The position numbers and the translations under genes are program-made. The notes below the pieces were generated by a model. The model had not been told where the DNA came from and ran no database searches. It saw only the letters and a program-made list of their open reading frames with translations. A stretch of 64,000 bases of DNA from the sequence record PQ306574.1; one strand, 5' to 3'. Below are positions 30,742-43,447 of the stretch, in pieces; the stretch's first letter is position 1; every line of letters starts with the position of its first letter. The stretch comes from Escherichia phage vB_EcoM_PTE-Eco09.

Positions 30742-31048
30742 ACAAGTTGATAATATCGCACTTCGTGAAGCACTAAAGAAAATGTTTTCGGTCGGTACTC
30801 ACTCTTTTCAGTTTACTAAGAAAGATGGTACTGTCCGTGAGATGATCGCCACGCGAGATCCGGCACTGATGCCGTTTGAAACATACGAAAAGTGGTTAGT
30901 TCCGAATGTTGAAAAACCGCGTAAAGAATCAGAAACATCTTTGCCAGTATATGAAATTGCAGTTGAAGGTTTCCGTAGTTTTGGGCTTGATAGTCTGATT
31001 AATGTAGACGGGCTGACTCCAGCGCAGATCGTCGAAATTTATAAATAA
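30734..31048 (+). CDS. hypothetical protein (about 105 aa)
   Basis: ATG ORF overlapping cd stop. Confidence 0.45.
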   Translation: MTEQVDNIALREALKKMFSVGTHSFQFTKKDGTVREMIATRDPALMPFETYEKWLVPNVEKPRKESETSLPVYEIAVEGFRSFGLDSLINVDGLTPAQIVEIYK

Positions 31049-31424: not shown

Positions 31425-31445
31425 GGCGGGAAATAATCCCGCCTA
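31425..31445 (+). terminator. terminator-like hairpin after gene 31
   Basis: GGCGGGA-AATAA-TCCCGCC followed by T-rich run. Confidence 0.5.
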
Positions 31446-31495
31446 TATTTTGGCTATATGATTTTGTAAGTTATTGATTATTAAGGAATTTTATT

Positions 31496-31660
31496 ATGAA
31501 AACTATGAATGTAAACATCCACGAAATCCATACCGAAGTATTCACCGAAGAAGACCAGTTTGGTGTATGGGTAAATCCTCATTCGATTACTATCGATATT
31601 CCTAATGACGATTATGATCCGTTCTCTCTGATTAGCGAGATTAGTTTTAATGACTTCTGA
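31496..31660 (+). CDS. hypothetical small acidic protein (54 aa)
   Basis: MKTMNVNIHEIHTEVF…; SD AAGGAA; hand-derived. Confidence 0.3.
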   Translation: MKTMNVNIHEIHTEVFTEEDQFGVWVNPHSITIDIPNDDYDPFSLISEISFNDF

Positions 31661-32129
31661 AATTGATATCTATGCGGGTGGACCTTATCCATCGGGTGAA
31701 TTGAGTAATTTCAATAAAAGACCATTCCGTCTATTTGGTTGCGATATTAACAGCACAGAAGGATTTTTACAGGGGCTAAGATTTAAGAACCCTCAGAGAC
31801 AAAGAGAAATCTTTTTGATGCACGGTGGCAAAGCAAAAAGAACCGGAAGAACTGAAAAGATTGAGAATCACCTGTTATATTTTCAGGGTCGCCAGATTCA
31901 TCGAATGAGTGAGCATTATTACAGACTGGTACATCTGGCATTTGTTACGATGGCACGGAATAACCCAGAATTTTGTAAAGCATTACTCGCTACCGGAAAT
32001 AAGAAATTACGTCATAGTATAGGTGGAACTGATCCGTTAAAGACTATATTGACTGAATCGGAATTTTGTAGTATCCTCAATGATATTCGTGAACGTTTAA
32101 CAAAACGAGGTGAAAATGTCAATTCTTAA
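31650..32129 (+). CDS. NADAR (YbiA/DUF1768)-like domain protein
   Basis: 159 aa; motifs in NADAR order (GELSNF; STEGFLQGLRF; GGKAKRTGR; ALLATGNKKL-HSIGGTDP). Confidence 0.5.
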   Translation: MTSEIDIYAGGPYPSGELSNFNKRPFRLFGCDINSTEGFLQGLRFKNPQRQREIFLMHGGKAKRTGRTEKIENHLLYFQGRQIHRMSEHYYRLVHLAFVTMARNNPEFCKALLATGNKKLRHSIGGTDPLKTILTESEFCSILNDIRERLTKRGENVNS

Positions 32130-38337: not shown

Positions 38338-38579
38338 AAAGAAAATTAATTAAACGCAATAAGGAATTTCTTAATAACTGCATTAAGGCCGCTAATGGTT
38401 GGCCTTTGTGCCTCTTCCTTTATGATTGGTATTCTAAACAATCAGTTGAGGAAGCACGACACTATAAGAAGATCAGAAAAGAATCACACACAAAACAAGG
38501 TCGCATTAACGGACTTTACTTAATGTGGCACGGTAAAGAACCGACTAAAATCTGTGCTGGGTTAAAGGGTCGTATATGA
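38334..38579 (+). CDS. hypothetical basic protein (81 aa); first gene of coupled four-gene module
   Basis: Start overlaps upstream stop; stop overlaps next start. Confidence 0.45.
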   Translation: MKRKLIKRNKEFLNNCIKAANGWPLCLFLYDWYSKQSVEEARHYKKIRKESHTKQGRINGLYLMWHGKEPTKICAGLKGRI

Positions 38580-39292
38580 AACAAAAATTAATATTCTGCA
38601 ACTTTGACGGATCGGGAATAATGGGGCTAGAATGGGCTAAAGCAGGTCATAAGGTAGTCTGCTTTAATGCGGATGACGCCGACCACGGTACATACAAAAA
38701 GTATAATACCAGATTTGAACATCCAAACATTACCTATGTAAACACATGGATTGATTTGAATTGGCTGGAAAGAGCAATGGACCTTGAATGGGGGAAACCG
38801 GATATTATCTTTGCATTCCCACCGTGCACCAATTTAGCTGTTAGTGGCGCTGCGCACTTTGAACGAAAGAAACTAGAACAAGGACCATTGATTCAAGTTC
38901 ATGATGTAAGGGCAGCTAAAATAACCGCTTATTTGGGTGAATGGCTAGGAGTTCCCTACATGATAGAGAATCCTGTAAGCGTTATCTCTAGTATGTGGCG
39001 TAAGCCTGATTACATGTTCCATCCGTGGGAATATGGCGGTTATTTGCCGGAAGATGATAAACATCCTACTTTTCCTGAGTATATCGCCGCCCGTGATATG
39101 TACCCGAAAAAGACTTGCTTATGGACCGGACAAGGCTTTATAATGCCAGAAAAGAAACCGTTGCAGATTAATAAAGGGTACAGTAAACAGCATTCTAAGC
39201 TAGGCGGGAAAGGAACGAAAACAAAGACTATCAGGTCACTTACCCCGCGAGGATTCGCAAAGGCAGTATTTGAAGCCAATAAGGATCTATGA
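38576..39292 (+). CDS. DNA C5-cytosine methyltransferase-like protein (minimal, 238 aa)
   Basis: Motif order and spacing of C5-MTase catalytic domain: FDGSGIMG (motif I-like), AFPPC (PCQ-like with Cys), IENPV (ENV-like); too short for a canonical target recognition domain. Confidence 0.45.
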   Translation: MKQKLIFCNFDGSGIMGLEWAKAGHKVVCFNADDADHGTYKKYNTRFEHPNITYVNTWIDLNWLERAMDLEWGKPDIIFAFPPCTNLAVSGAAHFERKKLEQGPLIQVHDVRAAKITAYLGEWLGVPYMIENPVSVISSMWRKPDYMFHPWEYGGYLPEDDKHPTFPEYIAARDMYPKKTCLWTGQGFIMPEKKPLQINKGYSKQHSKLGGKGTKTKTIRSLTPRGFAKAVFEANKDL

Positions 39293-42622: not shown

Positions 42623-43447
42623 ATGTTCAAGAAATTACAGGATTTTCGTATTTCAGAAGAATCACGCGAATCAATGATGGAACGTATGGATAATTACATC
42701 GAAACATATGACATTGAGGGGATTAATGGTTACATGATCACTGAGATGATCAGTGATCAGATTAACTTTGATGATTATGTGAAGGTTATCCGCTTCCTTG
42801 AGCGCGAGACACAAGATTATGGATTTGTCAAGAAAATCATTAATGTGATGTATGAAGTACACTCCGAAGAATTTGGAGATAATGTATTCAAACATTACAA
42901 ACATAACAACATAACCCCAGCAGAATATAATGCAATCTGTGATTATGTGTCTGAACAATACGAATGGGTAAATGGTGCTCTCTTAGGGGAAGAAGACATG
43001 ACCGATGAGATATCAGAGATTGTCGATTTGATGGATTGCGTCATGGATAAAACCGAAAAGTTAAACGGTACTCTTTATCGAGGTCAACATCTTGACATTC
43101 AGACAATAGAGCGTATCATTGAAGATAAGGAGTTTACCTTTAAAAACTTTGTATCTACCAGCATGACACCGATCATATTTGGAGGATGGCTATCAAACAG
43201 CACTAGCCTTTATTGTGAGAATCGATATGAATCAATGACCGGAAAGATGCAACATTCTTGTAATGTATCATGGGTAATTGACGTAAAAGATCATAAAGGT
43301 TTTGTTGTTGGGTCAATTGCATGGAACCCTTGCGAATGTGAAGTAATTTTACCGCGAGGGACTTGCGTCAAGGTAAACGACGTAGTAGAATCTTTCGGCG
43401 ATGAGAATCGTAGACAATTTACAATTTTCGGTGAGGTGACTAAATGA
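42623..43447 (+). CDS. second ADP-ribosyltransferase (Alt/Mod-like paralog, 274 aa)
   Basis: R-S-E motifs: TLYRGQ, FKNFVSTSMTP (compare Alt FKNYVSTSLAP), ECEVILPRG. Confidence 0.6.
   Translation: MFKKLQDFRISEESRESMMERMDNYIETYDIEGINGYMITEMISDQINFDDYVKVIRFLERETQDYGFVKKIINVMYEVHSEEFGDNVFKHYKHNNITPAEYNAICDYVSEQYEWVNGALLGEEDMTDEISEIVDLMDCVMDKTEKLNGTLYRGQHLDIQTIERIIEDKEFTFKNFVSTSMTPIIFGGWLSNSTSLYCENRYESMTGKMQHSCNVSWVIDVKDHKGFVVGSIAWNPCECEVILPRGTCVKVNDVVESFGDENRRQFTIFGEVTK

Follow-up and report, generated by a model that had tools for sequence, protein, structure and literature searches.

A Krischvirus orthologue of T4 gp30.3/AdfN, a probable NADAR-fold anti-DarTG1 N-glycosidase, with arginine in place of the phosphate-binding lysine

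NADAR proteins form a superfamily, to which de Souza and Aravind had already assigned the phage (gp30.3) proteins by bioinformatics (cited in Schuller et al. 2023, PMC11543638). Schuller et al. (2023) reported that NADARs hydrolyse the guanine-linked ADP-ribose made by DarT1 (PMC11543638). Among base-linked ADP-ribose (ADPr) adducts, all four NADAR families act on guanine, some act on cytidine as well and none on thymidine-ADPr, and all of them also remove G-ADPr from RNA. A residue in the last strand distinguishes the types: it is His in phage NADARs, Glu in the YbiA type and Asp in the DarG1 type (PMC11125620, PMC11543638).

One phage member is T4 gp30.3, which was found in 2024 to remove G-ADPr, and not T-ADPr, from DNA in vitro (PMC11125620). 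Johannesman et al. (2025) identified gene 30.3 as the locus through which T-even phages resist DarTG1 and renamed it adfN (anti-DarT factor NADAR; PMC11825919). T4 AdfN strips ADPr from DarT1-modified DNA in vitro, is both necessary and sufficient against DarTG1 during infection, and has no effect on DarTG2 (PMC11825919). The E36A and K43A variants are impaired, E36A catalytically, while K43A gives only partial rescue (PMC11825919). The C-terminal helix is needed for T4 AdfN to be fully active and is missing from the frameshifted allele of the DarTG1-sensitive phage RB69, where its loss correlates with sensitivity (PMC11825919). Full function of T4 AdfN is confined to T-even infections and may involve a phage partner; the protein is no substitute for DarG1 in uninfected cells (PMC11825919). 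A transposon screen also found 30.3/adfN to be conditionally essential on DarTG1 hosts (bioRxiv 10.1101/2025.11.20.689424).

The stretch of DNA analysed here, referred to below as the window, comprises 64,000 nucleotides of Escherichia phage vB_EcoM_PTE-Eco09 (PQ306574.1). It comes from a Krischvirus, an RB49-like T4-type coliphage. An initial annotation of the window had drawn attention to a 159-aa ORF with NADAR-like motifs; its coordinates, strand and ATG start proved exact (Table 1), and RB49 gene 30.3 has the same reading frame and the same start. The identity of the gene is directly observed. The surrounding 2.7-kb stretch shares 98.4-99.5% identity with RB49, JSE and some 55 further records, and the protein is 100% identical to the copy in phage vB_ESM-pEJ01. 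In RB49 and JSE the gene carries the labels 30.3 and "gp30.3 conserved hypothetical protein".

We consider it highly probable that this ORF is the Krischvirus (RB49-type) orthologue of T4 gp30.3/AdfN, a minimal single-domain NADAR-fold N-glycosidase directed against DarTG1. The orthology is clear: the two proteins can be aligned over their full length (38% identity, E=1e-28), belong to the same Pfam family, occupy a shared neighbourhood and both keep the catalytic Glu and the His. The low degree of identity to T4 AdfN (38%) nevertheless counts against this reading. By homology, the substrate would be G-ADPr in DNA and the role would be to counter DarTG1. This agrees with the earlier suggestion that the protein could reverse DarT-type guanine ADP-ribosylation and so provide a counter-defence against DarT, an activity published for gp30.3/AdfN of T4, of which the window protein is a clear orthologue.

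Family, fold and function, the last by way of the T4 orthologue in 2024-2025, have all been published, and the finding is already known. Since 30.3 has been annotated in RB49 from the time its genome was deposited, the identification carries little weight as a discovery. Its use lies in annotation: the gene can be described as an adfN-like NADAR ADP-ribosylglycohydrolase, while most of the near-identical Krischvirus records listed still say "hypothetical protein".

Table 1. Coordinates of the 30.3 (adfN) locus, of key residues of its product and of related ORFs in the window
Feature	Position in the window	Strand	Basis
54-aa ORF (ATGACTTCTGA); 11-nt overlap of its stop with the adfN start	31496..31660	+	ORF list; annotated in RB49
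Gene 30.3 / adfN orthologue, single-domain phage NADAR, 159 aa	31650..32129 (stop included)	+	ATG start; ORF list
Glu37, codon GAA, catalytic glutamate (= T4 AdfN E36; E. coli YbiA E48)	31758..31760	+	Alignment with T4 gp30.3; hhalign with YbiA
Arg44, codon AGA, at the diphosphate-binding lysine position (T4 K43; YbiA K55; PnNADAR K50; E. coli C7 NADAR K95)	31779..31781	+	Alignments
His122, codon CAT, last beta-strand, hallmark of gp30.3-type NADARs	32013..32015	+	Homologue alignments
C-terminal alpha-helix, residues 136-152, intact	32055..32105	+	AF2 secondary structure (H136-152, high confidence)
HNH endonuclease ORF, 158 aa	33605..34081	+	Overlaps the 3' end of the ligase gene
GmrSD_N (DUF262, ParB-like) ORF, 184 aa	39587..40141	+	PF03235, E=7e-20; hypothetical in RB49
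Alt, virion-packaged ADP-ribosyltransferase, 683 aa	40494..42545	+	PF03496, E=2.5e-9; RB49 alt
Second ADP-ribosyltransferase, 274 aa, Alt C-terminal-like	42623..43447	+	PF03496, E=2.9e-16; phrog_15144, phrog_802; RB49 annotation

The protein matches PF08010 (Phage_30_3) far above the cutoff (E=9.5e-38, 129.6 bits against 36), with residues 13-148 aligned to positions 2-138 of the 138-position profile, and it also matches phrog_652 in PHROGs (E=5.5e-45). Pfam covers the gp30.3 proteins by this model of their own, apart from the NADAR model PF08719. The PF08719 match of the window protein falls below the gathering cutoff (E=0.0093, 16.7 bits against 35.1), a point against the AdfN assignment; two close homologues (P0006 and P0064) have precomputed PF08719 matches. 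A profile search of PDB sequences reached YbiA alone, at E=0.16, and hhalign comparison of the family profile with YbiA gave E=1.9e-5 with a probability of 78%. Since the sequence evidence for a NADAR domain is weak, both this comparison and the fold were needed. Single-sequence AlphaFold2 (AF2) was unusable (pLDDT 46.9), and the model used was therefore built from an alignment of 129 sequences. With this model, fold searches recover the YbiA/NADAR three-dimensional fold for the 159-aa protein.

The NADAR-like motifs of the initial annotation are real, though weak in sequence. Of the two computational checks it had suggested, structure prediction returned the expected fold, whereas the outcome of the PF08719 search is borderline, as the direct match is sub-threshold and the NADAR link comes from fold and profile-profile evidence. 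The family is very large, with more than 4,500 clusters in a profile search, and tblastn located a copy in 1,509 phage records, chiefly from T4-like phages of Escherichia, Klebsiella, Aeromonas, Acinetobacter and Vibrio.

Two other matches were set aside. A phmmer match among PDB sequences to the D-alanine ligase DltA (7vhv, E=7e-4) is spurious: it lies within a 485-residue enzyme and is absent from the profile and fold searches. The protein is not a member of NCBIfam NF053876, "DS32_2 NADAR family anti-phage protein", for which it scores 14 bits where the cutoff is 240, and PADLOC gave no match. The existence of the NF053876 model indicates that NADAR domains serve host defence as well.

The predicted fold matches YbiA as well as it matches DarG1. 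This is one of the observations consistent with activity on soluble ADP-ribose-derived or N-ribosyl small molecules, such as immune signals, NAD-derived toxins or YbiA-type riboflavin intermediates, and not on DNA adducts. E. coli YbiA is an N-glycosidase acting on riboflavin intermediates, and soluble substrates were predicted by Iyer et al. That prediction is, however, older than the T4 AdfN experiments, which revealed DNA de-ADP-ribosylation and a DarTG1-specific phenotype. Phage NADARs moreover carry His and not the YbiA-type Glu in the last strand, and DarG1-type NADARs are their nearest relatives in the published tree. We regard a soluble substrate as very improbable.

The residues expected of an AdfN orthologue could be examined directly in two sets of homologues, 129 from databases and 82 from viral contigs. 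The position of Glu37, where the first core helix begins, is occupied by Glu in every member of both sets. His122 (in KLRHSIGG) is conserved in all 129 database homologues and in 81 of the 82 viral-contig homologues, and stands opposite YbiA E125 in the hhalign alignment after its extension by one residue. The alignment with T4 gp30.3 reaches the end of the T4 protein, and the C-terminal helix is conserved.

By analogy with T4 AdfN, a host DarT1 toxin would ADP-ribosylate guanine N2 in the replicating phage DNA. The phage enzyme would bind the ADP-ribose and hydrolyse the ribose-guanine bond, with Glu37 and His122 at the distal ribose and Arg44 replacing the usual Lys at the diphosphate. Unmodified DNA would thereby be restored and phage replication could proceed, the protein acting as an early-expressed, phage-carried "orphan antitoxin". 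The T4 map and Iyer et al. 2022 lead us to expect early expression of 30.3.

Arg44 is the sole departure among the key residues. It lies seven residues past the Glu and keeps the basic character of a position that is Lys in 126 of the 129 database homologues and in 79 of the 82 viral-contig homologues. Arg is confined to the Krischvirus clade, in three proteins of the first set (the window protein, P0001 and P0002) and three of the second (L005, L006 and L085). The last of these, L085, is the contig that encodes P0002; this relative is 69% identical and has the same gene order. Comparison of the window gene with that of L085 gives a dN/dS of 0.12, which indicates that the Arg-bearing lineage is under purifying selection and is not decaying.

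The substitution counts against the AdfN assignment, since the equivalent K95R change in the E. coli C7 NADAR leaves the enzyme active in vitro and abolishes rescue of cells from DarT1 (PMC11543638). The protein could be an AdfN orthologue which the Lys-to-Arg change has weakened or retargeted, with RNA G-ADPr or another guanine ART toxin as its target, or with Krischviruses being sensitive to DarTG1 although they have the gene. Such a change is compatible with the near-invariance of the Lys among homologues, with the separation of hydrolysis from cell protection in C7 K95R, with the partial rescue by T4 K43A and with the removal of RNA G-ADPr by all NADAR families. Arg is, however, a conservative replacement and in vitro activity was kept in the one case tested; the low dN/dS applies within the Arg-bearing clade itself and all other invariant residues are present. 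We therefore judge this reading unlikely.

A broader proposal, to which we also give little credence, is that RB49-type AdfN may differ from T4 AdfN in potency, in partner requirement or in substrate, which could for instance be RNA G-ADPr or some other guanine ART toxin. It draws on the clade-fixed Arg, on the uncoupling caused by a K-to-R change in a DarG1-type enzyme and on a different gene context, without 30.2 and 30.1 and with an overlapping 54-aa ORF. If true, it could shed light on the dependence of T4 AdfN on T-even infection. With the window protein taken as an AdfN orthologue, the Krischvirus Lys-to-Arg change amounts to a small natural experiment on the in vivo role of this residue, and it is the only point here worth an experiment. 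A literature search found no study pairing a Krischvirus or RB49 with a DarTG test.

As in T4-type genomes, 30.3 is located between gene 31 and the ligase gene 30 (window compared with the RB49 and T4 maps). The local gene order is pseT, cd.2, cd, 31.1, 31, the 54-aa ORF, 30.3, 30 (ligase) and the HNH endonuclease. T4 genes 30.2 and 30.1 are missing from the position between 30.3 and 30 in the window, in RB49 and in L085 (window 32055..32129 compared with the T4 locus, L001, 5475..6311), an absence that refers to this position. Together with the restriction of full T4 AdfN function to T-even infection, it counts against a straightforward equivalence with AdfN. The last codons of 30.3 overlap with the start of the ligase gene, both its ribosome-binding site and its ATG (32116), and the corresponding end of the protein, residues 153-159, is modelled by AF2 with low confidence.

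The short ORF which overlaps the start of 30.3 matches phrog_15277 (E=3.7e-42), and L085 has a counterpart of equal length at the same position with 41% identity. It was considered as a homologue of T4 gp30.4; this was ruled out, as the two show no similarity. Translation of the 54-aa ORF and that of adfN may be coupled. A T4-type late-promoter box, TATAAATA, is found at 31040..31047 (+), 43 nt 5' of the gene 31 start, and a GC-rich hairpin followed by a T-run at 31425..31453 (+), between gene 31 and the 54-aa ORF that precedes adfN. These two features suggest that the transcription of adfN may be in part separate from that of gene 31. The hairpin was the only signal above chance in a promoter and terminator scan near 30.3. 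At the 3' end of the ligase gene, the HNH endonuclease ORF, probably a mobile insertion, stands where T4 carries alt.1 and alt.

The window also encodes the two ADP-ribosyltransferases (ARTs) which the initial annotation had noted; both are annotated in RB49. They lie about 8 kb downstream of 30.3, with about 25 small ORFs in between. The 274-aa ART directly follows alt and matches phrog_802 over positions 329-602, which represent the C-terminal half of Alt; from its sequence it appears to be an Alt paralogue without the N-terminal region. In the same part of the window, the GmrSD_N ORF is found just downstream of an ORF (38576..39292) annotated as a DNA methyltransferase in RB49, for which we found no Pfam match at E<=0.01.

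The Alt-type ARTs are context for adfN, and any functional link of theirs to the gene is putative. The presence of two ARTs within the same early-gene region speaks for a reading, raised in outline by the initial annotation, in which the 30.3 protein would reverse or tune the phage's own Alt-type modification; it might for instance remove arginine-linked ADP-ribose from RNA polymerase or from other host proteins. The activities described in the literature consulted are, however, on base-linked ADPr, and none on protein-linked ADPr was found there. T4 adfN is essential only in the presence of DarTG1 and has no reported phenotype otherwise, and 30.3 and the ARTs are not neighbours. Control of ADP-ribosylation by the phage's own enzymes finds no support here, and we consider it extremely improbable.

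The closest described system remains T4 gp30.3/AdfN, of the "phage NADAR" family of Schuller et al. 2023. The AdfN orthologue of the window shares with it the PF08010 domain and a single-domain NADAR core (152 aa in T4 and 159 aa here), as well as the catalytic Glu, the phage-type His, the C-terminal helix and the location in the gene 31-to-30 region. The two differ in that T4 has Lys43 where the window protein has Arg44, and in the 7-residue C-terminal tail of the latter, which overlaps the ligase start. Their loci also differ: in the window, 30.3 abuts gene 30 directly, without 30.2 and 30.1, and a clade-specific 54-aa ORF overlaps its start in place of T4 30.4. In Krischviruses, cytosine is unmodified.

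In contrast to DarG1, the antitoxin of DarTG1 (for example Geobacter lovleyi 8BAT and the E. coli C7 NADAR), the window gene is an orphan with no adjoining DarT1. Its neighbours are gp31, the 54-aa ORF and DNA ligase, and the nearest ARTs, 8 kb away, are of the Alt type (PF03496) and not DarT. The last-strand residue is Asp in DarG1 and His122 in the window protein, which comprises just the core domain, lacks the extra structural elements described at the N terminus of DarG1, and shares about 11% identity with it. Identity to E. coli YbiA (2B3W) and to Phytophthora PnNADAR (8BAU) is about 20%. YbiA has Glu125 where the window protein has His122 and, unlike the window gene, is chromosomal, in a LexA-controlled operon, with a role as an N-glycosidase of riboflavin intermediates. 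The AdfN proteins of Bas32 and Bas60 are likewise phage-borne NADARs and both counter DarTG1. They were acquired independently, belong to other NADAR branches, are detected only by DELTA-BLAST and work without phage infection, whereas the window protein belongs to the gp30.3 branch.
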